From: Dictyostelium discoideum
Lineage: Eukaryota
DNA length: 64,000 nucleotides
NCBI GenBank assembly: GCA_000004695.1
Contig: CM000150.2
Span: 128,001-192,000, forward strand
Direction: 5' to 3'
Position numbers and translations under genes: made by a program. Of this stretch, positions 4,935-28,865 are shown one piece after another (within the stretch, counting starts at the first letter, position 1; every line of letters starts with the position of its first letter). Below the pieces are notes generated by a model. The model was not told the origin of the DNA and ran no database searches. It saw nothing but the letters and a program-made list of their open reading frames with translations.

Positions 4935-4939
4935 AATTT

Positions 4940-8752: not shown

Positions 8753-8773
8753 AAGACTGATCAATACCCATCA

Positions 8774-11762: not shown

Positions 11763-11765
11763 TAA
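11298..11765 (+). pseudogene. DIRS-1 ORF1, 3'-truncated
   Basis: 155 aa identical in register to ORF1 N-terminus. Confidence 0.75.
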
Positions 11766-12419
11766 TGTAAAAAAATAAAAAAAAATAATAAAAAAAATGA
11801 AACCATAAAACATAAATAAAATGATATGTTTTATTTTTTAATTTAATTTTGTATAAATATTTGTGAATACAATGAGAAATAATATACCGGGTTACACTGA
11901 ATTATATAAATAATAACATAATCTTTCTGAAAAACTTATTAATTTTTTTTTTTTTTTTTTTTTATTTTTTTATTTTTTTTTTTTTTAGTAATTGTTGACT
12001 AAAACCTATAAATATTTTCATTTATGTAACTACTGTATTCTAAACTTAACTATAATTATATATTTGATATGTGTTTATTAATAATTTACCATTATAAATT
12101 GTAAAATAATTTTTAATTTTTTTTTTTTTTACCTTTTTTTTTATCTTTAATTTTTTTTTATCTTTTTTTTTTAACCTTTTTTTTTTATCTTTTTTTAACC
12201 TTTTTTTTATCTTTTTTTTTTTTTTTCTAAAATATTATTGCTACATTTGTTGTTAAAAAAAAATAGGAATTTTATTTTTTTTTTATATTTTTTTTCATCA
12301 CACATTCACAAACATGCTTTATTTTTTAAAAAAAAAATATTTAAATTAAAAAAACATGCTTTATTTTTTTTTACAAAAATAAATTTTTTTTTTTTTATTT
12401 TTTTTTTTAAACCTATAAA

Positions 12420-13121: not shown

Positions 13122-13473
13122 AAATATTTTGCTTTTTTTTTTTTTTTTTTTTTTTTATTATTTTTTTTTACCAACACATAACGACTCTTCCTTACTTATA
13201 ATATATAAGCAAATAACATTAAAAAAATTGTTAAATTATTTACATAACTTTTACGTAAAAACGAACGGATTTTTATTTTTATTTTTATTTTTTTTCAATT
13301 TTTTTTTTTTTTGTTTCGGTTATTATTTTTCAGACTTAAATTATTATTTATAAATTAAATATAAAAAATAATATTGCATCATCTGGAAATGGTAATTATT
13401 TAAATTGATATTATCCAACTTCGCTTATTTTAAATAAAAATGAAACTGCACTAAATCAAAACTGGTAAGGTAA

Positions 13474-14027
13474 GATGATTTTTAAGGTAATTTTTAAGAT
13501 AATTTTTAAGATATTTAAAAAATACCTTTAAAATTTATTTTAAATTAATTTTAAATAGGATTTAAAGTAGATTTAAAGTATATTTAAAGTGAATTTAAAT
13601 TTCCTTTAAGTATAAATTTAAGGTTTTTAATTAAAAAGATCCATTTTTAGATCAAAAAAATGGGGATAAAATATTCTACCATATTTAAATTTTCATCAAA
13701 GCAATCAAATGGTGTAATGGTTGATGAGACTATCCTTTGATAGAGGGTCGGGGGATCGAATCCCTTTTGGTAATTTTTGAGAAATTAAAAAAAAAAATTT
13801 TAAAAAATTTATCCGTTAAATAACGGCTTCGAACCCAGGACCTCGCTTTTAAAGCGATTAAAAAGGTAATTTTAAAGGTAATTTTAAAGGTAATTTTTAA
13901 GGTGATTTTAAAGTAACCTTAAAAATTACCTTTAAAATTACCTTAAAAATTGCTTTAATTCAGGACTTTAAATTCGCTTTAAATTAAATTTAAATTTGCT
14001 TTAAAGGTGGTTTTTTCTTCGCTGTGT
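13474..14027. mobile_element. MITE-like TIR element, 5'-truncated copy
   Basis: Matches internal and right-terminal parts of 12420-13121; ends ...ggtggttttttcttcgctgtg. Confidence 0.55.
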
Positions 14028-14735
14028 TAATGCCGATTTTTTTCATTTTTTGTTTTGTTTCTAATTTTATTTTGAGGATTTGAAAAATCTTGTTTATTTG
14101 GTTTTGAATTGTGAAAGTCAATAATATCTTTTTGATTTCTAAAATTTCCTTCTTTTAATAAATAATCGACACCTCTTGGTTTATCACATGTATGACATGA
14201 GAAATCATTGCAATTATAATGGTTAATCCTACAAGATGATCTAAATTCTGTTATATGCATTGTTAATCCATATGGTATAATTTCATAATCATTTTCATTA
14301 TTATCTTTAATTTTTAATTTATTATTAAATTGCGCTGAAAATAATTTTTTAATTGTTTGATGTATATTGTGAAACCATTCTTTTGGAACAATAAAAAAAA
14401 CAATTTTATTATTTTTAAAAAATGGACCAACATAATTTTCAAAATCTACCAATAATGTATAATCTGATCTACCTTGATGACTCATTCCTTCACTAAATAT
14501 TCTTAATAAAATAAATTTATATAAAATTGAATTTTTTATTTTATTAAACTGTTCTCCAGATTTATAATTTTTATAAATACCTTGCTCATAGTCTTTTGAG
14601 AAATCTAAATATTCTAAAAAATTTTTTTTTTCAATTAATAATTTAACAACTGAATAAATTTCAAAATAAAAAATTGACTCTTCATTTGTAACTCAAAAAG
14701 TGACCATCGATAGGTAAATTTGCTAAAAATATAGA
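14027..14735 (-). pseudogene. Fragment of a divergent paralogue of the 30505..33024 transposase (covers ~aa 255-485), truncated where the MITE terminus at 14027 begins
   Basis: ...SIFYFEI...LLRIFSEGM...GLTMHITEFRSSCRINHYNCNDFSCHTCDKPRG aligns to the full-length protein; stop codon directly abuts cacagcg. Confidence 0.55.
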
Positions 14736-14743
14736 ATCCATAC

Positions 14744-14783
14744 ACAGCGAAGAAAAAACCACCTTAAAAGCAAATTTAATCTA
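14744..14783. repeat. Solo TIR of the MITE-like family
   Basis: cacagcgaagaaaaaaccaccttaaaagcaaattt, no matching partner nearby. Confidence 0.5.
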
Positions 14784-15410
14784 AAAAAAAAACAAAAAAA
14801 GTATTATTTTAGATTTCTTCAACTTCATCAATAATATCAATGCTTTCAAAACCAATCACCAGTTCTTTTAAAATAAATTGATACTACAATTAAATAATAG
14901 CTGGTAAGTTAATATAATTTTTTTTTAAAAAAAAAAAAAATTAAAAAAAAAAAAAAAATAAATAATAATAATAAAATAAAATAGATAGACTAATTTGAAA
15001 AATAATAATTATATTTTAGGTTACCTTTCTTATTATACCAACAACCACTTCTTTTCAATCAAATTGATACTTCACTTATATAATAACTGGTAAGTCAATA
15101 TAATTTTTTTTTTTTAAAAAAAAAATAATAATATAAAATAAAGAGATTAATATAATTTAAACAATTATATTTTAGGTTGTTTCTTCTTTTATTAGAACCT
15201 GTAAAGTAAATGCTTTTGGTACAAATTATAATGGAAATAAAGTTCTGCTTTTCAAATTAGTCAATTATAAATGTTGTATTACCATTAAATAAAAAAAATT
15301 TCTGATTTCAAATACTTTTACTTTTTAATTAATTCTTTTTTTTTTTTTTTTTTTTTTAAATTTATTTTAAATTATTATTATAAAATGTTATTTTTAATTT
15401 TTATTTTTAA

Positions 15411-15715
15411 GTATTCTTATTAAGTGAACTTTATAATTACCCTTAATAATTACCCTTATTAATTATAATTAATAATTCCACTTAATAGTTATACTTAATA
15501 ATTATACTTAATAATTTTAATTATTAATTATATTTTATTATTATACTTAATAATTATGCTTAATAAATATACTTTTTAATTATACTTAATAAATATACTT
15601 AATAAATATACTTTTTAATTATACTTATTAATTATACTTAATAAATATACTTAATAATTATACTTAATAATTATACTTAATAAATATACTTATTAAGTAT
15701 ACTTAATAATAGTAC
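15411..15715. repeat. AT-rich tandem satellite (unit ~ATACTTAATAAATATAC / TTATACTTAATAA)
   Basis: ~18 imperfect tandem units visible by eye. Confidence 0.6.
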
Positions 15716-15719
15716 TATT

Positions 15720-16989
15720 TACGTTCCTACTTTAAAGATGCTTTTAAGTATTTTTTTTCGCCCCTGTGGAGATTAACACCCTCATTTAGGGGATGTCTTG
15801 ACCAGAACACAGGTTATCCCCTTATTTTTTCTTTTAATTCAATGGAGGAATGTCATGCCATGTAAACCTTTTGATTTTGGTAACAGGACAAAACGCACTG
15901 CAGCGGTCGATAAAGCCAAGCGAGTTGCTAATCCAATTCGTCGTACTCAGTTACTGAAGAAGATTCGTTAATGACTGATCGGAAAGTCAGCATCGCTAGA
16001 ATGGTAGATTGTCGTTGAGATGCAGGGCGTAAAGCCCAGCTATTGGCAAAGATGTAAGCGGCTTAAGAGCCCCTAATTAGTATCCGCGGTCACGGCCGCA
16101 CATCCTAGCCTATGGGCTCACACCAATGCGTAATATGGTAGCAAAAATCATGTCAGATGAAGACATCCCAGATCATGATACCCGTACATGGTATTGTCTC
16201 CAGTATCCAATAACCTCAATCTGCCATCAAACCAAATTATAATATTTAAAAAAAAAAATTTGAATCTCAAAAATCATTTTCTAGATCTGAAAAAACCCAC
16301 TTAAATTATTATTAAATTACTATTTTTTTTAATAATTTAGTAAATAGATATTTTAAGTCATAAATTAAGCGATAAAATCTATTTTTTTGGTTAACCAGCA
16401 TAGTCTAGGTGTTTATCTATTTAATATGTTTTTTGTGGATAATAAAGCATATTTCAATCACTAATGATATTTATTAAATTTATTAAATTTGTTTATTTTT
16501 TTTTTCCGTGATGGAAAATGGTAAGACCATTAGTTCGTTCTGCATTGCCCATTACATCACCACTTCTTACATGTCAGCGTCTGGTGAAGTTACGCTGGGT
16601 GATGCAGCCGATAAAGAGACACAGTTCGCTATTAACTCGACTGGATCGATTAATATGTAAGCGCCACGTTTTGTTCTGAAGGGTATTCGGGATGAGAGAA
16701 CACCTGTTTTTGAATGCTCATGAATTATCCAGCATAGTATGTGGAATTCTATAGACCCTATTACCAGAAATACGACCACGGAAGATCTTGGTTCGCAACG
16801 CGTTTGCTGAAGTGGTTCACACACAACTATCCAACAGCGGTGATTGATGTGGTTAAGTCCGTGGCCCTGGTTCTTGTTAAACATCGCGATTTGATTGGTA
16901 ACCCATCATTCATTGACACAGAGTGGTTTTTGGATGGTGAGTGTTTGCGTCATCTTAATAACGCACTGGTCATGGAAAACGAACCGGTT
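15720..16989. other. GC-normal island B, prokaryote-like
   Basis: Ends exactly at DIRS left-ITR terminus 16990; contains SD-preceded small ORF. Confidence 0.55.
15856..15972 (+). CDS. Small basic ORF (MPCKPFDFGNRTKRTAAVDKAKRVANPIRRTQLLKKIR)
   Basis: GGAGG 6 nt upstream of ATG (caatGGAGGaatgtcATG). Confidence 0.3.
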
Positions 16990-17025
16990 TATTTATATTA
17001 TCATATATATATATATATATTATGA
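16741..17025 (+). CDS. Hypothetical ORF in island B, runs into the DIRS ITR, probably truncated
   Basis: GC-normal codon usage; no recognisable motif. Confidence 0.2.
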   Translation: MEFYRPYYQKYDHGRSWFATRLLKWFTHNYPTAVIDVVKSVALVLVKHRDLIGNPSFIDTEWFLDGECLRHLNNALVMENEPVYLYYHIYIYIL

Positions 17026-17079
17026 ATAACATTTATTTATTTGAATTTCCCAAATATTTAAGATAATTTTTTAGAATGT

Positions 17080-17101
17080 TCTAGAACATTCGAAGAATAA
17101 A
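17080..17101. promoter_or_regulatory. Perfect 4-unit heat-shock element in DIRS ITR (GAAtgTTCtaGAAcaTTCgaag)
   Basis: Alternating GAA/TTC at 5-bp spacing. Confidence 0.55.
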
Positions 17102-17443
17102 AAAAATTTTCCAAAGAAAAGTAAAAATTTCGACCCGGCACAATGATGCGATAATTGTGCAAGGTCGAAAAACTGAAAAATTCGGAACCGACACTATGTA
17201 CAAAGTTGTGAAGGGTCGAAAACTCTTATTTTTTTGAGTTTTGCGAAATTTTTAAGAAAATAAAAACGTATAAATAGTGGCACTAAAAACTAAAACAATT
17301 TGATTTATTTTATTTGGGAATTCCTCCTATATATATTTAAGATACACACACACACAAATTTTATACAAATATTTATTTCTCTTTATTAATTTTTTATATT
17401 ATTATTTTTCTCATATTATAATTTTAGATATCAACAATAAAAT

Positions 17444-19357
17444 ATGTCTACCACTGTTAATAATAATGATGCCTCTAGTAGTAGTGCCTCTGCCTCTAAT
17501 AGCGCTGAATCCTTTGATTTAAGAATAAAATCAATGGAGGATCAAATCAACAACCTTTCTTTAGCCTTTACAAGATTCATGAAAGAACCTATTTTCTCAT
17601 CTAATTCCAATTCACGTAGCCAACCTTCTCATGATAACTCTGACACCGAGAATGAACAAAGTGAAGATGAATCAAGTAACAATGTCGATGTTCCAACCGA
17701 TTATCAATTATCCGATACCTTACTTGGTCAGTACAAACATATGGTAAACAATCAAGGTTTACTCGTCGAAGGAATCAAGAATCTACCATCAATGGTCAAA
17801 CAAGGTTATTACATGGTAAAACTCGATATCAAGAAAGCCTACCTCCACGTTTTAGTAGATCCGCAATACAGAGACTTATTCCGCTTCGTGTGGAAAGGTT
17901 CGCACTACCGTTGGAAAACAATGCCGTTCGGGTTATCGACAGCTCATCGTATCTTTACAATGTTGTTAAGACCTGTACTTCGAATGTTGAGAGATATCAA
18001 CGTATCCGTCATCGCTTACTTGGACGATCTATTAATCGTCGGTTCAACAAAAGAAGAATGTTTATCCAACCTCAAAAAGACGATGGACTTACTTATCAAA
18101 CTAGGTTTCAAGTTAAATCTAGAAAAGAGTGTTCTCGAACCAACTCAATCAATTACGTTTCTCGGATTACAAATCGATTCAAAATCAATGAAGCTTCTTG
18201 TTCCCAAAGAAAAGAAGAAAAGTGTCATCAAGGAAATAAGAAACTTTTTAAAACTAGATTGTTGCTCCCCAAGAAAGCTTGCTGGTTTAAAAGGAAAGCT
18301 AATTGCACTGAAAGATGCAGTTATCCCATTCAGACTTTACACTCGTCGAACAAACAAGTTTCACTCTCAGTGTCTGACTCTAGCCAATGGAGATTGGGAT
18401 CAATCATTCCACATTCCTCAAGATGTCAAGTCAGAGATTTCACATTGGTTAACAGTTCTAAACCAATGGAATGGAAAAGAAATCAGTCTGTTTCCAAGTT
18501 ACGACTATGTTCTTACAACCGATGCCTCGGAATCAGGTGCAGGTGCCACACTCAAGAAAGGAAGCAAAGTAATCAAAACTTGGTCATTCCAGTGGTCAAT
18601 AACTCAATCAAACATGTCGTCAAATCGTCGAGAAATGCTCGCGCTGCTGATGGCCTATCAAGCGCTATGTCAGAAACTGAACAACTGCAAGCTGAAGATT
18701 CAAACCGACAACACTACCACTCTCTCTTACATCAATCGCCAGGGTGGTCAGATACAGGATCTCTCAGTTCTGTTCGAACAACTTTGGAAACAATGCCTCA
18801 AGAAGAAAGTGAACTTGATTGGAGAGCATATTCCAGGATTCTTCAATGTAAAAGCCGACCACCTCAGTCGTCTTTCAGAGATGAATCACAAATCATCGTC
18901 CAGAGTAATCAAGAGTTACAACTGGCAACTGAAGAAGGAAGTGTTCAATCGCATCCAACTTCAATTCGGTCAAATACAGATGGATCTGTTCGCATCTCAC
19001 TTCAACCATCAAACGAACAACTACTCAACAATCAGAATGAATGCACTCCACCTCGATTGGAGTCAATGGAAGCAATGTCTGGCCTTTCCACCACCCATTC
19101 TTTTGCCTTCTATCCTGGAGAAGATGAACTCATCCAGTTCGAAGAAGGTTTCTATAATACTGATCTTCCCAATCTGGAGATCAGCAACTTGGTATCCGAT
19201 GATTCAAGCTCAAGTTCCTCGTCATCATCGTCACATGTTTCCTCAAGTACTGGGAACATTCCAAGAAGTATTGACCAAACAATCAGTAGAGTCGATACCA
19301 ATCCAGATTCAACAACGTTGGAAGCTGGGGATTATTCAACTTTCCAATCTCATGTAA
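17444..19357 (+). CDS. DIRS-1 ORF1(N-terminal 108 aa)-RT/RNase H fusion ORF created by the deletion
   Basis: ...NNQGLLVE|GIKNLPSMVKQGYYM...; 637 aa open. Confidence 0.8.
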   Translation: MSTTVNNNDASSSSASASNSAESFDLRIKSMEDQINNLSLAFTRFMKEPIFSSNSNSRSQPSHDNSDTENEQSEDESSNNVDVPTDYQLSDTLLGQYKHMVNNQGLLVEGIKNLPSMVKQGYYMVKLDIKKAYLHVLVDPQYRDLFRFVWKGSHYRWKTMPFGLSTAHRIFTMLLRPVLRMLRDINVSVIAYLDDLLIVGSTKEECLSNLKKTMDLLIKLGFKLNLEKSVLEPTQSITFLGLQIDSKSMKLLVPKEKKKSVIKEIRNFLKLDCCSPRKLAGLKGKLIALKDAVIPFRLYTRRTNKFHSQCLTLANGDWDQSFHIPQDVKSEISHWLTVLNQWNGKEISLFPSYDYVLTTDASESGAGATLKKGSKVIKTWSFQWSITQSNMSSNRREMLALLMAYQALCQKLNNCKLKIQTDNTTTLSYINRQGGQIQDLSVLFEQLWKQCLKKKVNLIGEHIPGFFNVKADHLSRLSEMNHKSSSRVIKSYNWQLKKEVFNRIQLQFGQIQMDLFASHFNHQTNNYSTIRMNALHLDWSQWKQCLAFPPPILLPSILEKMNSSSSKKVSIILIFPIWRSATWYPMIQAQVPRHHRHMFPQVLGTFQEVLTKQSVESIPIQIQQRWKLGIIQLSNLM

Positions 19358-20322
19358 TGTCCTTCGCTCGTACTACAAATACAAAAACAGCTGAGCTGTT
19401 AATGAAGTCATGGGAACCTTCAACTCTCAAAGTATATAGCTCCAGTTATACAAGATTCCGCAATTTCTGTACGTTGAACTCTTTGAATCCAGCAAACATA
19501 ACCTTAGTTGTTTTCATGGATTATCTTACACATCTGTTCAAGCACAAACCTCCGTTAGCCTTCTCAACAATTAACGGTCATCGCTCTATGTTGAATCAGT
19601 TGTTACTCCTTAGGAATCAAACTGATATTGTTAATGATCCATTCATCACAAGAATTATGACTGGTATTCACAAGTTGCGTCCTTCATCTGCAAAGTATAA
19701 AGAGATATGGGATGCAAATCAAGTATTCAAGCACTTATCTACTGTCAAAGTCATCCCTAAGTACACATACACTGCGCTATTAAACAAGACACTTGTACTC
19801 TGTAAAATGTTTGGTTTAGCAAGATCATCAGACTTGGTGAAGTGGTCGTTCAAAGGTCTCATTATTACTACTGACTCAATCAAAGGTCCAGTCATTAATG
19901 CTAAAGAACAAAGAAGTGGTGTTGTTTCAATATTAGAATTAACTTCGTTAGATGATACAAACTCTCAAGTGTGCCCTGTTCGCCACCTTGCAACATACCT
20001 TAGAGCCTCTAAAGGAAGAAGAAAGCCCCATTCGGGTGACCCTGTCTTTATTAAGAATGAGGGTGAACCGCTCCAAGTTAATGATATTAACTCAATTGTA
20101 CTATCAACGCTCTCAAAGTCAGGCATTGATATTGTCAAGTTCAAATCTCACTCTACCCGTTCCGCTATGGCTTCTCTGCTGTTGTCCAATAACGTTCCGT
20201 TCCACGTTGTCAAGAAGATGGGTCGTTGGAAATCAAACGATACTGTAGATTCCTTCTACGATAAAAGAATCATTGGTGAAAAATCTGGTGGTTTCTTAAA
20301 TACTGTCGTCCAAATTTCATAA
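17890..20322 (+). CDS. DIRS-1 ORF2 (tyrosine recombinase C-terminal domain intact)
   Basis: HSTRSAMAS and GRWKSNDTVDSFY motifs present. Confidence 0.75.
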   Translation: MERFALPLENNAVRVIDSSSYLYNVVKTCTSNVERYQRIRHRLLGRSINRRFNKRRMFIQPQKDDGLTYQTRFQVKSRKECSRTNSINYVSRITNRFKINEASCSQRKEEKCHQGNKKLFKTRLLLPKKACWFKRKANCTERCSYPIQTLHSSNKQVSLSVSDSSQWRLGSIIPHSSRCQVRDFTLVNSSKPMEWKRNQSVSKLRLCSYNRCLGIRCRCHTQERKQSNQNLVIPVVNNSIKHVVKSSRNARAADGLSSAMSETEQLQAEDSNRQHYHSLLHQSPGWSDTGSLSSVRTTLETMPQEESELDWRAYSRILQCKSRPPQSSFRDESQIIVQSNQELQLATEEGSVQSHPTSIRSNTDGSVRISLQPSNEQLLNNQNECTPPRLESMEAMSGLSTTHSFAFYPGEDELIQFEEGFYNTDLPNLEISNLVSDDSSSSSSSSSSHVSSSTGNIPRSIDQTISRVDTNPDSTTLEAGDYSTFQSHVMSFARTTNTKTAELLMKSWEPSTLKVYSSSYTRFRNFCTLNSLNPANITLVVFMDYLTHLFKHKPPLAFSTINGHRSMLNQLLLLRNQTDIVNDPFITRIMTGIHKLRPSSAKYKEIWDANQVFKHLSTVKVIPKYTYTALLNKTLVLCKMFGLARSSDLVKWSFKGLIITTDSIKGPVINAKEQRSGVVSILELTSLDDTNSQVCPVRHLATYLRASKGRRKPHSGDPVFIKNEGEPLQVNDINSIVLSTLSKSGIDIVKFKSHSTRSAMASLLLSNNVPFHVVKKMGRWKSNDTVDSFYDKRIIGEKSGGFLNTVVQIS

Positions 20323-21313
20323 TATATATATATATATGATAATATAAATTAAAAATTTAATTTATTAAATTATATTTTATATTAAATATATATATATATA
20401 TTAGTCCCATCCCACCCGCCCTTAGTCGGAATTCCATAAATCAAATTGTTTTAGTTTTTATTGCCACTATTTATACGTTTTTATTTTCTTAAAAATTTCG
20501 CAAAACTCAAAAAAATAAGTGTTTTCGACCCTTCACAACTTTGTGCATAGTTTCGGTTCAGAATTTTTCAGTTTTTCGACCTTGTGCAATGATCGCGTCA
20601 TTGTGCCGGTTCGAAATTTTTACTTTTCTTTCGAAAATTTTTTTTATTCTTCGAATGTTCTAGAACATTCTAAAAAATTATCTTAAATATTTGGGAAATT
20701 CAAATAAATAAATGTTATTCATAATATATATATATATATTTAATATAAAATATAATTTAATAAATTAAATTTGTAATTAAACAGAACCCTGAGACGTATG
20801 TGGTCTACCAGAAGGTATCAAATGTAGCAAATCGCGTGCTTTAGAACAATCGCATGTATTCGGTGTGTTATGTATTCCAACGTACCATACCCGTAATCAT
20901 TCGTTTGGTTTCAAATATGTGTTGGTATCGAAGAACCTACAGCGTCTTCAACCAGGTGAGCACCTTGCGGCGGGGGACAATTTTTGCACACTCCCCTAAT
21001 TTGACAGAGGGCGGTGACTAAATACGGGTGTGAAACTAACGTGTGTTTCATGTCACTACCAGAAGTCGAACAGGATGGAATGATTGCTACGGAATCATTC
21101 GTTAATGCCATGGCGTGTGATAAGATGGAGAGTCGTTTATTGCAATGGGGTGAGAACAATGTACTTGTTAAACAACTACAAACCTTATCCAGTGATCGGG
21201 GAACAAATTCGGGATGATGGTTTTTTATTCGCAATGCGCAATATCGAATCTGATGTTGGTCTGGTCAACATGACTGCGAAAGCATTGATGGAAGTGGATG
21301 TCATCTTGGATAA

Positions 21314-21835
21314 ATGCGTGTACGGCGACCTAGTGCAACGGTAATCAACATTACCATCAAGTCCAACCGCCTGCGTACAGGTCGTTCAGAAGTTCAGTTC
21401 TATGATAAACAATCCGACCCCTATGAAAAAGCAGACCGTGACTTTCCTATCAATCTGCGTGGTGTGTATGAAACATTATTGAGTCGTCACCCACATACCT
21501 TAATGTTAGAGCCTAGTCTGAACACTTTGGTCAATAATGCCATATCTGATACCGGTGGTTTGGATCGTCGAATGAATGCCCAAACTGGTGCAATCTTGGC
21601 GATGGATAAAGGTGTTCAGATCTATAACAAGTTCCTATCGGCTACTGGCGTGCTTAGATCTCTTTTGTTAAATGCATTGTGGCAGGTGTGCGTTTCAAGA
21701 TCTCTGACAGTCATGAGGGTAAAGGTGTTATCGTTCATGTCTTTAAAGATGAAGATGCACCGACATGGCGTGCGTACAGATGTCATCGTGGATAACGCCT
21801 CTATCACTAAAACTCTATTGAACAGTTTGAGTTGA
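21314..21835 (+). CDS. Hypothetical protein (173 aa)
   Basis: GC-normal ORF, stop overlaps next start. Confidence 0.3.
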   Translation: MRVRRPSATVINITIKSNRLRTGRSEVQFYDKQSDPYEKADRDFPINLRGVYETLLSRHPHTLMLEPSLNTLVNNAISDTGGLDRRMNAQTGAILAMDKGVQIYNKFLSATGVLRSLLLNALWQVCVSRSLTVMRVKVLSFMSLKMKMHRHGVRTDVIVDNASITKTLLNSLS

Positions 21836-22452
21836 TGTCCAACAGTCCTATCTATCAGTCCAAAGCAAACCGTGATCATCATGTGAGCTGGGTGATTGAA
21901 CATGAAGTAGAGCTGCTAGCGTTAACTGATCGCTTGTATTATGGGGCAGAGCAGATTCTTCGCATTAAGAAGAACCATGACTTCCCAACATATCCTGCTC
22001 GTTATCGAGCACCTTATGGGAGGTTTGTGATAACTCGTGATCCAGTAATGATTGTACCAGTGTATATCATCCTGTTGGAAAAGATGAGGGAATATTTGGT
22101 TTCCTATGCAGTGCCTAAGTTAATGCACTTCGGTACTTTATCTATTATTACTCAAGTAGACAAGTACGCCCTCCCTTGGCGTAATGTACCAACTCGTTTG
22201 GCTGGTGAGTCAGACATTCGTCTGTTCTGGCGGCTGGTACACAAACCGTCTATTATCATTGCCAATACACCGGCAATGCAGAAAGCAGTAGGTAAGTTAT
22301 TGCGTCATGAGAATCCAATGCGTATTGACAATTTGATGGATGAAAGTGTATCTCCACTAGGTCGTAATCGACCAGTGCAGATGTATAAACACATGCAAGC
22401 TTGTCGTGGTATTCGCTTTGAACGTCAATTGTTAACTGAAGGGGCCGCTTAA
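21832..22452 (+). CDS. Hypothetical protein (206 aa)
   Basis: ATGA/TGATG translational-coupling junction with upstream ORF. Confidence 0.3.
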   Translation: MMSNSPIYQSKANRDHHVSWVIEHEVELLALTDRLYYGAEQILRIKKNHDFPTYPARYRAPYGRFVITRDPVMIVPVYIILLEKMREYLVSYAVPKLMHFGTLSIITQVDKYALPWRNVPTRLAGESDIRLFWRLVHKPSIIIANTPAMQKAVGKLLRHENPMRIDNLMDESVSPLGRNRPVQMYKHMQACRGIRFERQLLTEGAA

Positions 22453-22468
22453 AGCAGATCGGCAAGAT

Positions 22469-23059
22469 TTGCTAATGAATGGAGAGCAGATCTGGTCGTT
22501 AGATCCTCAGTGTAATAATCCTAAAGTTCAGGTTCTCGCTGAGGATAAAACTTTTGAGATGTTGGTGCGTCCTCTGATAGCCAGCTGGCCAATTCAGAAG
22601 TTCCAAGAAGGGATGGCTCTGGGTAAGCGGCATTTCTTAACAGGGTTCCGCATTTCAAACAAAGGTATCCGTAACATACTGACCGAAGGGTATCGTGACT
22701 ACGATATGATCATTGTACAACTAATGGGCACTGATCTGACCGGTGGGTTCATCGATGTAGTGAAATTTAACTCATTACAAGCCCGTACCATTAACCATAT
22801 CAACAACGCCTTTGTTGCAAGAATTCCTGAATATGTCACTACTGCAAGTATGGTTGACTATTTAGAGATTCTATTATTCGTCAAGTTCGAGCAGGTCTGG
22901 TTTAGTTCCAGAAATCTATCGGCTAGGCTTATAAGAAAGGACTGGGCCATATCAAAAACCCTGATAAATTTCCAAAGAATCAAATCGCTGAGGATATCAA
23001 ACAAGGCGGTGTTTCCGATGGCCAGACTGCTCAGGTGTTTATCTCATGTGGTTACCTAA
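22469..23059 (+). CDS. Hypothetical protein (196 aa)
   Basis: 16 bp after previous stop, same strand. Confidence 0.3.
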   Translation: MLMNGEQIWSLDPQCNNPKVQVLAEDKTFEMLVRPLIASWPIQKFQEGMALGKRHFLTGFRISNKGIRNILTEGYRDYDMIIVQLMGTDLTGGFIDVVKFNSLQARTINHINNAFVARIPEYVTTASMVDYLEILLFVKFEQVWFSSRNLSARLIRKDWAISKTLINFQRIKSLRISNKAVFPMARLLRCLSHVVT

Positions 23060-23718
23060 CCGACCATAACTCCAGGATCTTTGTTCGTCCTGTTACGGTC
23101 AAGGTATTGGTAGCTTCTATGAAGCCTTTGTTGAATCACATTCTGCTACTGAGGCCATGATCTTTACCAAGAAACCATTGGAGGATTCAGAATGGTTTAA
23201 CCGTAAGTTACAATTGGTCGGTTAGGCCATACAGCGCGTCCATCTTGGTGAGGATTGAGGTACTCAAATTACAGTACCGGTAATAATGCGTCCAGGCTGG
23301 TCCGGTGTAATGGCGGGTAAGTATTACGTAGACGACAGTGGTCAGATGTAAGCCATTCATGAGAAAGATGAAGGTAAACTGCTGCGTATAAGGTCACTAA
23401 TGTATTGTCAGCATAAATATCGTTCGGGTGTTTATGAGCGCTGTTATGGTAAGTTGGCTATGTCGATCCCGTATTTCAACGTACTGGGCAAGATAGGGAA
23501 AAACGAAGCCATTGCTGGGCACGTGTCCGCAACAGAATTTGATGCTGCTTTATAACAGAAGATGTTGTCCACTAAACACCTGGATACTTCTTCTACGGTG
23601 GATCCGTTTATCATTCATCGTGAAGATGCAATTTATATAACGTGTGGTATTCGTGATAATACTGCTGGTTTAAACCTACGACTGAAAGGGCAGAATGTAG
23701 CCAGATGACGTAGGGATT

Positions 23719-24099
23719 GTGCTTGATCAGTTCTTAGAGTTACTTAACCGACTTCTACAGGTGAATATCGTTCATGCTGAAATGATTCTGTACTCGGTAA
23801 TGGTGCGTGACCCAAGCAAGTTGGATCATTGCTTACCGCGCGCTAACGAACAACGGCAGTTTAGTTCTTATCACGAATGTATCGAATTCCCCAGTCTTTT
23901 GGTGCAGTTGCTGTATCAAGAGCAAGCGGATGTTATGATGAAACCCATGACGTTCTTAATTGATAACCGTCAGTCACATCGGCAGATAGATTATATTACC
24001 CATCTGTTCAAGCACAAACCTCCGTTAGCCTTCTCAACAATTAACGGTCATCGATCAATGTTGAATCAGTTGTTACTCCTTAGTATCTTTGCAGACTAA
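23719..24099 (+). CDS. Hypothetical ORF whose C-terminus is encoded by an embedded DIRS-1 ORF2 fragment
   Basis: ...ITHLFKHKPPLAFSTINGHRSMLNQLLLL is DIRS ORF2 sequence. Confidence 0.25.
   Translation: MLDQFLELLNRLLQVNIVHAEMILYSVMVRDPSKLDHCLPRANEQRQFSSYHECIEFPSLLVQLLYQEQADVMMKPMTFLIDNRQSHRQIDYITHLFKHKPPLAFSTINGHRSMLNQLLLLSIFAD
23994..24083 (+). mobile_element. 90-bp DIRS-1 ORF2 fragment embedded inside island C
   Basis: ~97% identical to 19534-19620 (copy-3 variant); flanks on both sides are GC-normal non-DIRS sequence. Confidence 0.8.
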
Positions 24100-24110
24100 G
24101 GGGTAGGGCG

Positions 24111-24506
24111 ATGCGCACTACGGCAACGCTTATCATTGGTAATCATGGATTTACGGTTAAAGACTACAATGATGAGTTCTACAGTAAGGCAAGGGCGTAC
24201 TGCGCACGTTTCGTTAAATACCGGATTGAATCTAAGGTCGTCCAAGGACGGAGATCTTTTGTCAAGGTACCAGATCGTGTATTCGGCTCAGCTTCGAAGG
24301 ACCGTAAAGAGCTACACATTAACTGTTTAGCTGAATTTAAACAATTTATGTTGAATAGTGGTTGGAACCCTGAACGGTTCAAAGAAATCACCAGGGAATT
24401 ACCTGAGGGACGAGATGTCAATTCCAATGACCACCAGGTTGCAGTACCAGTTAGAGAAAGATCCTTCTGGTATCACGACCCGAATCAATACATTGCAAAC
24501 GGGTAA
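24111..24506 (+). CDS. Hypothetical protein (131 aa)
   Basis: taAGGGGtagggcgATG SD-like context. Confidence 0.3.
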   Translation: MRTTATLIIGNHGFTVKDYNDEFYSKARAYCARFVKYRIESKVVQGRRSFVKVPDRVFGSASKDRKELHINCLAEFKQFMLNSGWNPERFKEITRELPEGRDVNSNDHQVAVPVRERSFWYHDPNQYIANG

Positions 24507-24615
24507 AGGAAAGACATTCTATGCCATATACAACATGTTCAAACTGCAGAAGCTCACTGGCATTATGTTAATGCCGAAGTACATCACGACTTGGCATACT
24601 GGCTTACATGACTTT

Positions 24616-25334
24616 CACAGCGAAGAAAAAACCACCTTTAAAGCAAATTTAAAGCAAATTTGATTTAAATTGGATTTAAATTGAATTTAAAGCCGCGTTT
24701 AAAAAATTCATTTTTAAGGTAATTTTTAAGGTAATTTTTAAGATATTTAAAAATGCCTTTAAAATTTGCTTTAAATTAAATTTTTAAGCAATTTTTAAGG
24801 TAATTTTTAAGGTGATTTTTAAGATAATTTTAAGATATTTTAAAAATACCTTTAAAATTTATTTTAAAGTAATTTTAAAGAAGATTAAAAGTAGATTTAA
24901 AGTGAATTTAAATTTCCTTTAAACATAAATTTAAGGTTTTTAATAAAAAAGATCTAGTTTTAGAACAAAAAAATGGTGATAAAATATTCTATCATTTTTA
25001 AATTTTTCATCAAAGCAATCAAATGGTGTAATGGTTGATGAGACTATCCTTTGATAGAGGGTCGGGGGATCGAATCCCTTTTGGTAATTTTTGAAAAAAT
25101 TAAAAAAAAAATTTAAAAAATTTATCCGTTAAATAACGGCTTCGAACTCAGGACCTCGCTTTTAAAGCGATTAAAAAGGTAATTTTAAAGGTAATTTTAA
25201 AGGTAATTTTAAAGGTAATTTTAAAGTAACCTTAAAAATTACCTTTAAAATTACCTTTAAAATTGCTTTAATTCAGGACTTTAAAGCAAATTTAAATTTA
25301 AAGCGAATTTAAAGGTGGTTTTTTCTTCGCTGTG
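24616..25334. mobile_element. MITE-like TIR element copy
   Basis: cacagcgaag... to ...cttcgctgtg. Confidence 0.6.
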
Positions 25335-25469
25335 AAAAGATAATAATTTAATAAACTTTAAATGTTTTTTGAAAAAACACATTTAGGGTCAGTGATTTTT
25401 TTTTTCACTGCGCTACTGTAGTGAAATTAAATAATAAAATTAACTACGCTACTGTAGTGAAATTTTATT

Positions 25470-26825
25470 GAAAATTCCCTACAACAATTTGGTTTGGTTG
25501 AGTGAAAATTTGTAATATCATCTTGTTTTCATAATGTACCTGATTGGCAAATAAATAAACCATCTCTTGGCTTGTCACATGTGTGACATGAATATTCATT
25601 TGAATTATGTCCATTAAGTTTACACGATGCTCTAAATTCTGGAATATCCATTGTCAGTCCCAACGGTACAACATCTATTTGTTCGTTTTCAATAATTAAA
25701 TTAAAGCCAATACCAATAAAAGATGAAAACAATGTCATAATGGTTTGATGAAAATTAAGTAACCAATCATTTGGTACTACAAATAATAATAATTTATTGT
25801 TTTTAAATTCATTTCCAATATAATTTTCTATATCCAGCATTATAGAATAATCTTTCTTGTATTGACACCGCATACTATCAGTGAATATTCTAAGTAAAAC
25901 AATTTTATTTTTATTTTTATTTTTCGAATCTTTAAATTGTTGACCACTTTTATAATTTGTATAAATTCCAGTTTCAAAATGTGTATCAAAATCAATTCTA
26001 TTAAAAAATTGCTTTTTATTCAATAAAGTTTCTAATACTTTTTTAATTTCAAAATAAAAAATTGAGTGATCATAATTTTTATTTATAAATGTTTCTCCTT
26101 TTATTTGAAAATTTTCCATAAATAATTTATCCATATATAGAGGTGTGTATCTTATTAGATTTAAATTAGTTTATTTTTGTCAATAAAACTTTTAAATTTT
26201 TCAAGTAGCTTTAAACTTATTGAGTTTTCAATTCCCAACATTAAAAATTCAATTTCAGTTTCATTTAATTTTTTTTTGATTTTTTATTATCTAAATTATT
26301 ATTTTGATTATTATTTATTGGTTCATTTTGACCATTTTCATTATTTTCATTATTTTCATTATTTTTTGCTCCATTTTGATCTATTATATTTTCATCATCA
26401 CTATGTCGCAACCTAATTGTATCATGATTTTCTTCATTATCAATTGTTTGATTGTTTTCATTATTTTCATTATTTTCTTGATAAATAATTTCATCTTGGT
26501 TTTGGTTACATAAATGTTTACATGGGTCATCTATATCATTTGTTGGATATTTTATTTTTTCACCAGTAATATCCATTGATTTTTTATAAAAGCTATCTCT
26601 TTTTGGATTATTTGTAATAATTTTACTTTGTTCATTTTTACATTTTTTGGTGTTGAAATGTCCATTTCCATCATAAAATTGTTTATAAGAACGGTAATAT
26701 GAAAGACAAAATGGACATATATTTTTATGCATAATATAATGAATAATAATATTTTTAAAATTCTTTAATTTTTCTCTGCAATTAATGCATGATATGTTAT
26801 TTAAATTCATTTTGTTTGCAGTCAA
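25470..26825 (-). pseudogene. Degenerate copy of the zinc-finger transposase gene (frameshift between 26134 and 26265, nonsense TGA at 25529, 3' truncated)
   Basis: ORFs 26265..26825 and 25529..26134 match aa 1-180 and 230-430 of the 839-aa protein; homology continues past the stop (KQDDITNFHS). Confidence 0.65.
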
Positions 26826-26902
26826 ATGACCTATCAGTGAATAATTGAATTAATTATAATTAACTCAGCATATTTTAAAAAAGATGGAGTTATCCTAGAA
26901 AT

Positions 26903-27472
26903 CACAGCGAAGAAAAAACCACCTTTAAATTCGCTTTAAATTAAATTTAAATTTGCTTTAAAGTCCTGAATTAAAGCAATTTTAAAGGTAATTTTAAAGG
27001 TAATTTTTAAGGTTACTTTAAAATTACCTTTAAAATTACCTTTAAAATTACCTTTTTAATCGCTTTAAAAGCGAGGTCCTGAGTTCGAAGCCGTTATTTA
27101 ACGGATAAATTTTTTAAATTTTTTTTTTTAATTTTTCAAAAATTACCAAAAGGGATTCGATCCCCCGACCCTCTATTAAAGGATACTCTCATCAACCATT
27201 ACACCATTTGATTGCTTTGATGAAAAATTTAAAAATGATAGAATATTTTATCCCCATTTTTTTGTCTAAAATTAGATCTTTTTTTATTAAAAACCTTAAA
27301 TTTATTTTAAAGCGATTAAAAAGGTAATTTTAAAGGTAATTTTTAAGGTGATTTTAAAGTAACCTTAAAAATTACCTTTAAAATTACCTTAAAAATTGCT
27401 TTAATTCAGGACTTTAAATTCGCTTTAAATTAAATTTAAATTTGCTTTAAAGGTGGTTTTTTCTTCGCCGTG
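26903..27472. mobile_element. MITE-like TIR element copy, inverted orientation, terminus ~90 bp upstream of the minus transposase pseudogene
   Basis: cacagcgaagaaaaaaccacctttaaattcgc ... cttcgccgtg. Confidence 0.6.
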
Positions 27473-27725
27473 CTTAAAAATCACCTTTAAAATAAACTTT
27501 AAAATGACCTTGAAAATTACCTTTAAAATTATCTTTAAAATGACCTTTAAAATTACCTTTAAAATGCTCTTTAAAATTAAGTTTAAAATGCCCTTTAAAA
27601 TTAACTTTATAATGCTCTTTAAAATTACTTAAAAATATGATTAAAAATTATATTAATAATTACATTTTAAAGTTCCTTAAAAATTGAATTTTAAAGTTTA
27701 TTAATAATTACATTAAAGCACCTTA
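27473..27725. repeat. Fragment of a second MITE family (C-family), reverse complement of 34259-34507
   Basis: Direct comparison of the two stretches. Confidence 0.5.
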
Positions 27726-28865
27726 CACAGCAAAGAAAAATGCACCTTTAAAGCCAATTTCAAGCAAATACAATTTAAATTTGCTTTAAATTGGCTTTAA
27801 ATTTGCTTTTTAAAAAGGTAATTTTAAGGATATTTTTAAGGTCATTTAAAATTACATTAAAAATGACCTTTTAAATTTATTATAAAGCGGTTTTTAAATA
27901 ATGTTTTAATCACTTTATAATAAATTTAAAAAAGTTATTTTTAATGTAATTTAAAATAACTTATCAATCCTTTTTTAAGCTTTTATTACACAGCAAAGAA
28001 AAAACCACCTTTAAATTCGCTTTAAATTAAATTTAAATTTGCTTTAAAGTCCTGAATTAAAGCAATTTTAAAGGTAATTTTAAAGCGAATTTAAAGGTGG
28101 TTTTTTCTTTGCTGTGTAATAAAAGCTTAAAAAAGGATTGATAAGTTATTTTAAATTACATTAAAAATAACTTTTTTAAATTTATTATAAAGTGATTAAA
28201 ACATTATTAAAACCGCTTATAATAATTAAAAGGCATTTTATGTAATTTAAGACCTAAAAATCCTAAATACCTTTTTAATGGCTTTAAAAGCGAGGTCCTG
28301 AGTTCGAATCCGTTATTTACGAATAATTTTTTAAATTTTTTTTTTATTTTTCAAAAATTACCCAAAAGGGATTCGATCCCCCGACCCTCTATCAAAGGGT
28401 AGTCTCATCAACCATTACACCATTTGATTGCTTTGATGAAAAATTTAAAAATGATAGAATATTTTATCCCCATTTTTTTGTGCTAAAATTAGATCTTTTT
28501 TATTAAAAACCTTAAATTTATGTTTAAAGGAAATTTAAATTCACTTTAAATCTACTTTTAATCTACTTTAAATCCTATTTAAAATTAATTTAAAATAAAT
28601 TTTAAAGGTATTTTTAAATATCTTAAAAATTATCTTAAAAATTACCTTAAAAATCACCTTTAAAATCACCTTTAAAATCACCTTTAAAATTGCTTAAAAA
28701 TTTATTTTAAAGCAAATTTTAAAGGCATTTTTAAATATCTTAAAAATTACCTTAAAAATTACCTTAAAAATGAATTTTTTAAACGCGGCTTTAAATTCAA
28801 TTTAAATCCAATTTAAATCAACTTTTCTTTAAATTTGCTTTAAAGGTGCATTTTTCTTTGCTGTG
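27726..28865. mobile_element. Nested cluster of MITE-like copies including a 128-bp mini-element (27989-28116) flanked by inverted repeats
   Basis: Multiple cacagcaaag / ctttgctgtg termini; 27900-27996 is inverse of 28127-28225. Confidence 0.5.

Follow-up and report, generated by a model that had tools for sequence, protein, structure and literature searches.

Phage-type genes at 20776–24615

A single-copy insert with a GC content of 43% lies at positions 20776–24615 of the analysed stretch of Dictyostelium discoideum DNA (64,000 nucleotides, called the window below), surrounded by a genome of about 22% GC, and its codon usage is foreign to that of the host. An earlier note had placed an operon-like string of six plus-strand ORFs within these limits, which match the borders of the insert exactly, and all six were found where it had put them (21084..21344, 21314..21835, 21832..22452, 22469..23059, 23719..24099 and 24111..24506). 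Open stretches of 100 codons or more occur five times on the plus strand of the island and once on the minus strand, the longest surviving ORFs reaching 206 aa. In 500 dinucleotide shuffles the plus-strand mean was 0.65 and the maximum 4, so the co-orientation is not due to chance. Codon-position structure, the loss of which would have spoken against the ORF string as coding DNA, is still visible in the frames after repair (GC1/GC2/GC3 = 0.51/0.35/0.44), and the phage homologues described below show the same pattern. The island is prokaryote-style coding DNA, on one strand and tightly packed, which is now decaying.

The island consists of frame fragments of three collinear jumbo-phage genes and not of six genes. 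Their order is nvRNAP beta subunit 2, nvRNAP beta' subunit 2 and non-virion SF2 helicase, with orthologues in Erwinia phages RAY (gp248–250) and AH06 (gp267–269). The products had been called unrecognisable, which is true with Pfam but not with phage-specific profiles, as the RNAP-beta families PHROG 3295 and 3015 and the helicase family PHROG 16 matched in profile order. Phage proteins aligned collinearly with the island in tblastn, and in blastn against 21 Agricanvirus-type phages 65–70% of the island was covered at about 67% nucleotide identity. After frameshift repair, the protein-level identity to AH06 was about 62% over the whole island. When the whole 275-kb AH06 genome was compared with the window by tblastx, all HSPs of at least 40 bits (44/44) fell inside the island, at phage coordinates 208965–213263, and the partner RNAP subunits (beta 1, beta' 1 and the fifth subunit) were absent from the window. 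In all, the island has suffered 14 frameshifts and 8 in-frame stops, has lost 46 codons in one deletion and 130 in another, and is truncated at both ends; the supposed six-gene operon is made of pieces of three phage genes split by these frameshifts and stops. A bacterial-type operon with intact, coupled genes was also rejected, because the ORFs are pseudogene fragments, the TGATG at 21832 does not couple genes and the host is eukaryotic; the common orientation of the ORFs and the single ribosome binding site are relics.

The nvRNAP beta subunit 2 pseudogene (20776..22452, plus strand; orthologous to RAY gp248, AH06 gp267 and PHIKZ071) holds the first three ORFs. It spans aa 94–701 and a near-native stop, the first 93 codons being gone, and carries 10 frameshifts, in-frame stops at 20842 and 21655 and the 46-codon deletion. 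PHROG 3295 matched the three ORFs in order at profile positions 224–692 (E = 4e-17, 8e-10 and, for the third, 9e-45), and tblastn combined with frameshift-aware alignment gave 548 aligned codons, 61.9% identical in aa to AH06 gp267. The pseudogene also matched the phiKZ nvRNAP chain 7ogp_C in the PDB (E = 6e-14). It is homologous to the C-terminal split subunit and has no intact full-length frame. The close packing of the ORFs was confirmed, but the limit of 16 bp proposed for their junctions fails at the first one, where the overlap is 31 nt. As for the ATGA/TGATG coupling site suspected at 21832, TGATG is present; it does not couple genes, since here codons for E-L-M inside the beta gene, conserved in the phages, run into a stop in another frame.

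The nvRNAP beta' subunit 2 pseudogene (22460..23991, plus strand; orthologous to RAY gp249, AH06 gp268 and PHIKZ074) spans aa 7 to about 651 and takes in ORF 22469..23059, the "ORF-free" stretch 23060–23718 and most of ORF 23719..24099. It is interrupted by three frameshifts (22879, 23094 and 23701), the 130-codon deletion and six in-frame stops (22903, 22924, 23223, 23256, 23349 and 23553). PHROG 3015 matched its ORFs with E = 1e-12 and 4e-23, the identity to the phage orthologue was 61.8% over 500 codons, and AH06 gp268 itself matched 7ogp_D (PHIKZ074) with E = 4e-79. Homology again extends to the C-terminal split subunit, and no intact full-length frame is left. The stretch 23060–23718 had been read as decayed; there are stops in every frame, but decay is spread across the island and not special to this part, which in frameshift-aware alignment proved to be among the better conserved portions of beta' (64% aa identity, with four in-frame stops).

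Four codons ahead of the beta' stop a 98-bp patch of DIRS-1 has been placed (23986..24083, plus strand), which equals window 19516–19613, in the DIRS-1 coding region, at 95% by self-BLAST. Its edges were defined by comparing the island with both DIRS-1 and phages AH06/RAY. A 6-bp microhomology marks the left edge (ATGGAT in phage and DIRS, now ATAGAT at 23986–23991) and one of 3–4 bp, A(A)TC, the right edge. The beta' tail and intergenic spacer follow at 24084..24110 (plus strand), reading ...I-F-A-D-stop with TAA at 24097–24099; here the island sequence TAAGGGGTAGGGCGATG is aligned with TAAGTAAGAGGTTGGCGATG of AH06/RAY. The SD-like AAGGGG that had been noticed at this place lies at 24098–24103 and is a true relic of a ribosome binding site, aligning with AAGAGG upstream of the helicase ATG in the phages.

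That ATG is kept at 24111, with its binding site in the phage position, and opens the non-virion SF2 helicase pseudogene (24111..24615, plus strand; orthologous to RAY gp250 and AH06 gp269), directly 3' of beta' subunit 2. The pseudogene takes in ORF 24111..24506, covers aa 1–182 of about 515 with one frameshift at 24439, and retains a Walker-A-like GKGKT. Its identity to the phage proteins was 51–63% in tblastn and 58% over 169 codons, and PHROG 16 matched with E = 4e-4. A complete helicase core with both RecA-like domains is missing, as a transposon terminus at 24616 cuts the gene at residue 182.

Flanking transposons, alleles and gene models

Both borders of the insert could be set to the base. 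On the left, DIRS-1 homology stops at about 20773–20776. The adjoining DIRS-1 retrotransposon copy (16992..20775, plus strand) encodes RT (Pfam RVT_1), RNase H (RT_RNaseH), a Dam-like methyltransferase (Dam) and a tyrosine recombinase (Phage_integrase), about 96% identical to the proteins of D. discoideum DIRS-1. The right-hand terminal repeat of this copy runs up to about 20773–20775, where phage DNA directly follows; its homology breaks off at the base at which it also does so in the copy at 4470–4943. On the right, a multi-copy repeat begins at 24616 with the terminal inverted repeat CACAGCGAAGAAAAAACCACCTTTAAAGC (24616..24644, plus strand) of an AT-rich DNA-transposon-like element. Eight copies of this motif were found in the window, on both strands (0 expected); they form inward-facing pairs, for example 12420(+)/14026(-), and the outside flank differs at every copy. 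The surrounding cluster is of the DIRS/gypsy type (Skipper-like), with a Ty3/gypsy element adjoining, and the setting of the insert is a DIRS-1/Skipper/DNA-transposon cluster of centromeric type. The missing 5' part of beta and the remainder of the helicase were not found past the flanking transposons within the window, so a simple insertion of transposons into a longer phage insert would need further rearrangement.

Phage DNA in such a place might be an assembly or library artefact, that is, phage DNA from a contaminated culture or a cloning host mis-joined to Dictyostelium repeats. Dictyostelium is commonly cultured on enterobacteria. The foreign GC content and codon usage would suit this explanation, and repeat-rich centromeres are difficult to assemble (PMC2665215). 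However, the same junctions and lesions occur in three independent sources: the AX4 gene model, the independent D. discoideum assembly GCA_054883475.1 and at least nine Logan runs. The 4.92-Mb AX4 chromosome 1 carries the insert, and contig JBTAPE010000027.1 of GCA_054883475.1 equals window 20904–28092 at 99.96%, including the right junction and the whole DIRS-1 patch. A second allele was found in at least nine sequencing runs (Logan contigs from SRR26869267, the same contig in eight samples, and from SRR26869246). It shares the left junction and the left edge of the patch, both seen in the contig common to eight samples; of the eight stops it has six, of the frameshifts all 13 that are covered, and the two large deletions are present as well. 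Each lesion private to one or the other allele is of a different sort: the stop at 23349, deletions of 4 bp and 9 bp and an inversion of 7 bp. DNA of a live contaminant would have remained intact, without the 14 frameshifts, 8 stops and two large deletions seen here, and the private mutations, the DIRS-1 patch set into phage DNA at microhomologies and the failure to find any closer relative than about 61% aa (see below) all argue against an artefact, which we regard as effectively refuted.

In AX4, the insert is mis-annotated as DDB_G0267346 (UniProt Q55GY4), the pieces of which map to 23286, 23737, 24165, 24471 and 24871. The spliced model joins pieces of two phage pseudogenes in different frames and finishes in AT-rich transposon sequence (NFKED at 24871). 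No homologues of it were found except the locus itself, and it is not a coherent conserved protein. As regards sister species, a protein search, the outcome of which depends on annotation, gave matches to D. discoideum proteins only. Models also exist here in a second annotation (ACTFIT_012350 and ACTFIT_012352). That two annotations contain gene models and that ORFs of up to 206 aa survive could be taken for a functional acquisition, with a useful product expressed from DDB_G0267346 or from a helicase or RNAP fragment, and DIRS-1 terminal repeats are reported to act as promoters (PMC4482531). Against this stand the composite nature of the AX4 model, the absence of the partner RNAP subunits from the window, the early end of the helicase and the alteration in the island of 19% of the residues that are invariant in eight phages. 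The pattern of allelic differences is neutral, comprising nonsynonymous changes as well as a new stop, a 4-bp frameshift and a 9-bp deletion. We therefore give a functional acquisition only a very slim chance and, from the sequence, expect the island to be without function, although a role at the RNA level is conceivable. DDB_G0267346 (Q55GY4), ACTFIT_012350 and ACTFIT_012352 are pseudogene debris and not genes, which corrects the annotation of a model organism. The 3.8 kb of single-copy, GC-richer DNA in a repetitive cluster of chromosome 1 could serve as a unique anchor for PCR, FISH and ChIP.

Mutational decay and the phage donor

The in-frame stops align with phage residues K, P, D, Q, C, K and S, which points to random damage and not to recoding. 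Net deletions account for 11 of the 14 frameshifts. At every codon position the GC content of the island is below that of all eight phage homologues, and at first and second codon positions invariant in the phages we counted 95 GC>AT against 56 AT>GC changes in the island (p = 0.002; ratios in the controls, 0.75–1.21). Nine differences between the alleles could be polarised: seven are GC>AT and none is AT>GC, and one of the nine makes a new stop. Substitutions since integration fall on all codon positions and are biased from GC to AT, as predicted from the host genome, although, with all relatives only 60–62% identical in aa, part of the AT shift could reflect a donor of lower GC content. The measured mutation spectrum of D. 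discoideum fits both the GC>AT and the deletion bias of the island (PMC7466956). The decay independently reproduces an AT-biased, deletion-prone spectrum measured in the laboratory, and the island may be used as a neutral clock for centromere evolution.

The Agricanvirus block (Erwinia phages RAY, AH06 and Ea35-70) resembles the island in its three genes, their order and orientation, spacers of 10–14 nt and the position of the helicase ribosome binding site, with identities of about 67% (nt) and 62% (aa); unlike it, the island copy is truncated, frameshifted, riddled with stops and located in a eukaryotic chromosome. The products of RAY gp248, gp249 and gp250, all three belonging to the core genes, are located in the phage nucleus (PMC10299810). 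The phiKZ nvRNAP (PDB 7OGP/7OGR; PHIKZ071 and PHIKZ074) has homologous split beta-C/beta'-C subunits but is distant (about 34% aa identity), and the Dictyostelium copy cannot encode either subunit. The island is 60–62% identical in aa to both deep sub-clades of the Agricanvirus group, which are 65–68% identical to each other. This equidistance makes the donor a third, unsampled lineage, on sequence grounds a relative of Agricanvirus; the island thereby documents a deep lineage of such jumbo phages. Nothing closer than about 61% aa was found among phages, a plasmid-free E. coli genome, bacterial genomes and metagenome contigs.

The block could have come indirectly, first residing in the genome of a bacterium (a prey species or else an endosymbiont, for example Paraburkholderia or Chlamydiae) and entering as bacterial DNA. 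Transfers of genes from bacteria to Dictyostelium are discussed in the literature (PMC10733785), and bacterial symbionts are reported from wild isolates (PMC12745789). On the other hand, no relative of the block was detected in 185,579 bacterial and archaeal species, represented by one genome each, and all 175 phage records with a match to the island are phiKZ-like jumbo phages. To our knowledge, these phages have a lytic life cycle and do not integrate into bacterial chromosomes. Bacterial flanks are lacking as well, both edges of the block lying inside phage genes, and we consider the indirect route very improbable. NCLDVs encode multisubunit RNAPs, and an NCLDV or another eukaryotic mobile element with such genes, instead of a bacteriophage, would be a further conceivable source; amoeba genomes are known to contain pieces of NCLDVs (PMC5203793). 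The split beta-C/beta'-C subunits are, however, specific to phiKZ-like phages, the gene order, short spacers and Shine-Dalgarno site are common to the island and Agricanvirus, and the nearest sequences outside the Agricanvirus clade are other jumbo phages (at most 37%). The probability of such a source is practically nil.

Origin of the insert and route of entry

The region 20776–24615 is thus very probably a non-functional, 3.8-kb fossil of a nucleus-forming jumbo phage (phiKZ-like, Chimalliviridae) in the nuclear genome of D. discoideum. As a bacteriophage cannot infect the amoeba, another entry route has to be assumed, most probably feeding. The amoeba feeds on bacteria, and a lytic jumbo phage could have been taken up either as virions or inside infected prey; its DNA may then have survived digestion, got into the nucleus and been captured by end joining at a break in a repeat-rich centromere. 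The insert would never have been under selection in the amoeba and would have drifted for about 10^9 cell generations under the AT-biased, deletion-prone spectrum of the host. The left truncation could be due to insertion of, or recombination with, DIRS-1, and the right one to the TIR transposon; a later break was probably mended through microhomology-mediated copying, with a DIRS-1 element as the template. Templated "filler DNA", or microhomology-mediated break repair, and the NUMT-like capture of stray DNA at double-strand breaks are known processes. The DIRS-1 patch, with its microhomologies of 6 and 3–4 bp, and foreign DNA at repeat-rich breakpoints are similar to them, the pathway in Dictyostelium being deduced from the scar only. 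Today the only effects of the insert would be to provide single-copy sequence in a repetitive region and to seed spurious gene models.

Viral DNA fixed in the nucleus and decaying neutrally is likewise known as NCLDV and other endogenous viral elements of protists (e.g. Acanthamoeba, PMC5203793), but these come from viruses of the eukaryote itself, whereas the donor here would be a bacteriophage. Functional gene transfers from phages or bacteria to eukaryotes, such as that of cdtB into insects (bioRxiv 10.1101/544197), likewise brought material derived from prokaryotic viruses into the nucleus; they involve single genes which are expressed, have gained introns and are selected, whereas the island comprises several genes and was never domesticated. 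The fossil is not described in the searchable literature. We favour, with some reserve, the view that this is the first recognised Chimalliviridae fossil in a eukaryotic nuclear genome and direct physical evidence that a bacterivorous amoeba can fix DNA of its prey's viruses in the germ line, and that it may be one remnant of a jumbo-phage integration that was once larger, with others scattered in D. discoideum centromeres. If the latter is true, these centromeres would act as sinks for foreign DNA. As a rare fossil of bacterial-virus DNA inside a eukaryote's nuclear genome, the island suggests by its junctions, alleles and repair scars that DNA from a lytic bacteriophage can enter a eukaryotic germ line and persist there, although such a phage is unable to infect eukaryotes. 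It would represent the raw material of "you are what you eat" gene transfer in phagotrophs, here in an unselected state.

Three decayed phage genes behind an operon-like string

The island at 20776-24615 of the window had been described in an earlier note as an operon-like string of six plus-strand genes. The coordinates of the six ORFs were exact (ORF1, 21084..21344; ORF2, 21314..21835; ORF3, 21832..22452; ORF4, 22469..23059; ORF5, 23719..24099; ORF6, 24111..24506), and 20776 and 24615 proved to be the true borders of the insert. The first junction is an overlap of 31 nt, which exceeds the 16 bp allowed for. The other three were as tight as claimed: ORF2 and ORF3 overlap by 4 nt, and gaps of 16 nt and 11 nt separate ORF3 from ORF4 and ORF5 from ORF6. 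We counted five open stretches of at least 100 codons on the plus strand of the island and one on the minus strand, against a mean of 0.65 and a maximum of 4 in 500 dinucleotide-preserving shuffles. The G+C content of the island was 43.3% against a window average of 30.7%, and it is single-copy within the window, save for 98 bp at 23986-24083. Structured RNA (rRNA, tRNA or other) was considered as a cause of the GC-rich island and rejected; an Rfam gathering search and ARAGORN found nothing in the whole window.

The products had been called unrecognisable, and a Pfam search of the six ORFs indeed gave no matches, but all six were identified by phage-specific PHROG profiles. ORFs 1-3 matched PHROG 3295 ('RNA polymerase beta subunit') at positions 224-276, 277-372 and 495-692 of 698, ORFs 4 and 5 matched PHROG 3015 at profile positions 13-137 and 556-642 of 653, and ORF6 matched PHROG 16 (helicase family). 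In a sensitive blastn search, 65-70% of the island aligned at ~67% nucleotide identity with 21 phage records, each of them Agricanvirus-type, and the alignments all fell on one set of three adjacent genes. In Erwinia phage RAY these are gp248 (beta subunit 2 of the non-virion RNA polymerase, nvRNAP), gp249 (nvRNAP beta' subunit 2) and gp250 (a non-virion SWI/SNF-type SF2 helicase); their counterparts in Erwinia phage AH06 are gp267-269. The RAY genes are core genes of the nucleus-forming Chimalliviridae and their products are found inside the phage nucleus (PMC10299810). Both polymerase genes also have homologues in the solved structure of the phiKZ non-virion enzyme, 7OGP: chain C (PHIKZ071) for beta and chain D (PHIKZ074) for beta'.

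The decay of these genes was mapped by tblastn and a purpose-written frameshift-aware protein-to-DNA alignment. The beta pseudogene occupies 20776-22440 on the plus strand and corresponds to amino acids 94-701 (548 codons, 61.9% identity); its reading frame shifts 10 times and meets stops at 20842 and 21655, and a deletion has removed 46 codons. On the same strand follows the beta' pseudogene at 22460-23979 (amino acids 7-648; 500 codons, 61.8% identity). Its frame is shifted at 22879, 23094 and 23701, in-frame stops lie at 22903, 22924, 23223, 23256, 23349 and 23553, and 130 codons have been lost in one deletion. The helicase pseudogene, likewise on the plus strand at 24111-24615, is truncated to amino acids 1-182 (169 codons, 58% identity) and carries a frameshift at 24439. 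Opposite the stops the phage has K, P, D, Q, C, K and S, so they are random nonsense mutations rather than a reassigned codon; stop-codon recoding, known from some large phages, was rejected on this ground and because 14 frameshifts accompany the stops.

The observation was therefore confirmed, while its interpretation was partly supported. The six ORFs are fragments of three decayed phage genes, not an operon of six. The supposed TGATG coupling site at 21832 lies inside the beta gene, where E-L-M codons conserved in the phages meet an out-of-frame TGA. The stretch at 23060-23718, taken as ORF-free and decayed, does contain four stops, but at 64% identity it ranks among the better preserved segments of beta'. 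The SD-like AAGGGG, on the other hand, is real: TAAGGGGTAGGGCGATG in the island and TAAGTAAGAGGTTGGCGATG in the phage represent the beta' stop, the ribosome-binding site and the helicase start. By descent the island is a Chimalliviridae nvRNAP beta-2 / beta'-2 / SF2-helicase block, although none of its genes is intact, as a functional Chimalliviridae locus would require.

Independent copies and chromosomal setting

Contamination or mis-assembly was considered as the source of the phage DNA, and specific results contradict it. When phages and E. coli genomes were searched by megablast as a contamination test, no near-identical DNA turned up. On the 4.92-Mb chromosome 1 of strain AX4, the helicase ORF has its match in XP_647703/Q55GY4, annotated as 'hypothetical protein DDB_G0267346'. 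The model, 206 aa long, splices together segments at window positions 23286, 23737, 24165, 24471 and 24871 (span 23286-24885), and so mixes parts of beta' and of the helicase gene with AT-rich transposon sequence. In an independent D. discoideum assembly (GCA_054883475.1), contig JBTAPE010000027.1 equals window 20904-28092 with 3 mismatches and 0 gaps over 7,189 bp, and spans the right junction as well as the 98-bp repeat. It carries three annotated 'genes', and we confirmed two as ACTFIT_012350 and ACTFIT_012352; like DDB_G0267346, these two are protein-coding calls on pseudogene debris and should be flagged as pseudogene-derived. Looking up exact sequences gave nothing, either for the window ORFs in a collection of 15 billion proteins or for the AX4 model in a contig index.

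A second allele was found in Logan contigs, where SRR26869267 (one contig, 8 samples) covers 20733-24030 and SRR26869246 covers 20794-22590. It has in common with the window the left junction, 6/8 stops, all 13 covered frameshift sites, the two large deletions and the left-hand end of the 98-bp patch, and differs by 11 substitutions (0.34%), a 4-bp deletion causing an extra frameshift, and 9 bp that are gone from the window. The two alleles also differ by a 7-bp micro-inversion at 22901-22907 (TTTAGTT/AACTAAA, with inverted arms CTGG/CCAG), which looks like a small quasi-palindrome template-switch event and gives the window allele its stop at 22903 (TAG). A living contaminant phage would be intact and without alleles, and hence the island is not an artefact.

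The element adjoining the island on the left (ORFs at 17444-20322) encodes a reverse transcriptase, RNase H, a Dam-like methyltransferase and a tyrosine recombinase according to Pfam, and is ~96% identical to D. discoideum DIRS-1 proteins. Three further DIRS-1 copies and Ty3/gypsy-type polyproteins lie elsewhere in the window. The chromosome 1 centromere is composed of ~47% DIRS, 22% DDT and 11% Skipper, and the make-up of the window matches that described for D. discoideum centromeres (PMC2665215). At the left border, homology to the DIRS-1 terminal repeat stops at ~20773-20775, the same base as in another copy (4943), and phage homology begins at 20776. At the right border, helicase homology extends to 24615 and is followed by CACAGCGAAGAAAAAACCACCTTTAAAGC from 24616. 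We counted 8 occurrences of this motif in the window (0 expected). They lie on both strands and form pairs that face inward, and the sequences outside them are unrelated, which identifies the motif as the terminal inverted repeat of a DNA-transposon-like element. No other phage pieces were detected in the 64-kb window using 12-kb phage neighbourhoods and the whole 275-kb AH06 genome.

The 98-bp repeat at 23986-24083 is a DIRS-1 fragment, 95% identical to its source in a DIRS-1 coding region (19516-19613), and is located four codons upstream of the beta' stop. The phage reads CCG ATG GAT/GAA ATC TTC AAA TAA at this site and DIRS-1 reads TTC ATG GAT/TAT CTT … CTC CTT AGG AAT C, so that the edges of the patch show microhomologies of 6 bp (ATGGAT) and 3-4 bp (A(A)TC). 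The scar suggests templated, microhomology-mediated break repair using a DIRS-1 copy or cDNA; such a repair would have been possible only inside the amoeba nucleus.

Taken together, the island is very probably a decayed jumbo-phage gene block fixed in a centromere-type repeat cluster of D. discoideum chromosome 1. We are less confident about the route: phage DNA may have entered the amoeba along with prey and been captured at a break within the centromeric repeat cluster, where it would never have been under selection and would then have been eroded, and trimmed by DIRS-1 and the TIR transposon. The island thus belongs to the same class of genomic object as endogenous viral elements and other horizontally acquired fossils, but differs in that the source virus is a lytic bacteriophage unable to infect the host. 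We found neither DDB_G0267346 nor a link between Dictyostelium and phiKZ-like phages in the literature searched, though earlier informal knowledge is possible. A detailed study of D. discoideum centromeres does not mention a phage segment (PMC2665215).

Donor lineage and change since integration

With ORF3 as the query, tblastn retrieved 175 phage records, and identities of ~60% were reached only by Agricanvirus-type Erwinia phages, other phiKZ-like jumbo phages being at most 36% identical; specific results contradict an NCLDV origin. HMMER, run exhaustively against 1.84 billion representative proteins, returned only the Dictyostelium allele (99%) and one cluster at 61%, the next hit being at 37%. 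Five loci were retrieved from IMG/VR and three from JGI metagenomes, all at 60-61%. Transfer through a bacterial intermediary is contradicted, since 185,579 bacterial and archaeal species, each represented by a single genome, gave no match and we saw no sign of such a carrier. In none of these collections did we find a donor closer than ~61% amino acid identity. The group has two deep sub-clades, 65-68% identical to each other, and the island is equally far from both (60-62% amino acid identity), indicating that the donor was a third, unsampled lineage of Agricanvirus-like jumbo phages.

An uncultured Agricanvirus-like sub-clade (L006, L007, L011 and L012; IMG/VR and JGI contigs of 64-282 kb) shares only 65-71% amino acid identity with the Erwinia phages in the nvRNAP/helicase block, with GC3 of up to 0.71 in L007. 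The group is thus far more diverse than the cultured isolates suggest.

Eight phages (AH06, RAY and six genomes from IMG/VR or metagenomes) were set against the island across the 1,212 codon columns common to them all. The codon periodicity proposed as a check had been retained: the repaired frames keep a codon-position GC pattern shaped as in phage genes, with the island lower than every one of the eight phages at all three positions (GC1, 0.512 versus 0.532-0.560; GC2, 0.351 versus 0.366-0.383; GC3, 0.436 versus 0.485-0.712). At codon positions 1+2 invariant in the eight phages, the island had 95 GC>AT and 56 AT>GC changes (ratio 1.7, binomial p = 0.002), whereas functional phage lineages tested against the other sub-clade gave ratios of 0.75-1.21. 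Residues invariant in the eight phages were altered at 133/699 (19%), and at clade-invariant residues the island had 6-8% more replacements than an equal-depth functional phage (289 vs 213/947; 339 vs 275/1,033).

Nine of the 11 allele differences could be polarised with the phages as outgroup; 7 were GC>AT, 2 A<>T and none AT>GC. They hit codon positions 1, 2 and 3, and one is the window-specific stop at 23349. Net base losses account for 11/14 frameshifts. These biases match the mutation spectrum measured in D. discoideum, where the rate per site per generation is 4.36e-11 for G/C>A/T and 0.44e-11 for A/T>G/C, there are two indels for every substitution, and deletions outnumber insertions 4.5-fold (PMC7466956). 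A functional domesticated gene is contradicted by specific results, and the block is functionally dead; a role at the RNA level, e.g. in centromeric transcripts or as small-RNA precursors, is hypothetical but could exist.

The excess replacements, together with 7-8 stops in ~1,217 codons, suggest a neutral divergence of roughly 3-5% since the end of phage-gene life. At 2.5-3.4e-11 per site per generation, this would put the age at the order of 10^9 cell generations, and the decay would be ~10-25x older than the split of the two alleles; these rough estimates presume that the composition of the donor resembled that of its relatives.

Other elements of the window

The short AT-rich elements carrying the right-border motif form a family at 12420-14026, 24616-?, 27726-28865, 29472-? 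and 51584-53190, with 8 termini in the window. The inverted termini are CACAGC(A/G)AAGAAAAA(TG/AC)CACCTTTAAAGC, and TAATTTTAAAGG-like tandem repeats lie inside. It is probably a non-autonomous DNA transposon, perhaps DDT-like.

A segmental duplication of 11.9 kb (7435-19305 and 46599-58469; 99.77% identity, offset 39,164 bp) terminates within the DIRS-1 copy adjoining the island, and the DIRS-1 of its second copy is cut at 58469 by a gypsy-type element; the island consequently lies just outside the duplicated unit. An 839-aa ORF at 30505-33024 on the plus strand had no Pfam match. Rich in Cys/His motifs, it may encode a transposase belonging to a DNA transposon of Dictyostelium. Its partial inverted copy at 25486-26819 on the minus strand (94.8% identical) holds the 201-aa and 186-aa ORFs immediately to the right of the island.

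Two full-length Ty3/gypsy polyprotein ORFs, both of 1,397 aa, are arranged in tandem 6.6 kb apart on the minus strand (34941-39134 and 41548-45741), and a third, truncated copy was found at 58447-61131 on the same strand. Each has a gag-like ORF of 387 aa or 275 aa upstream, and they are presumably Skipper-type elements. At 25015-25160 we also noticed tRNA-like fragments (…GGTGTAATGGTTGATGAGAC…GGGTCGGGGGATCGAATCCC… and …GGCTTCGAACTCAGGACCTCGC…) that gave no ARAGORN gene call; tRNA pseudogenes have been reported from the chromosome 1 centromere (PMC2665215), and these fragments may be among them.
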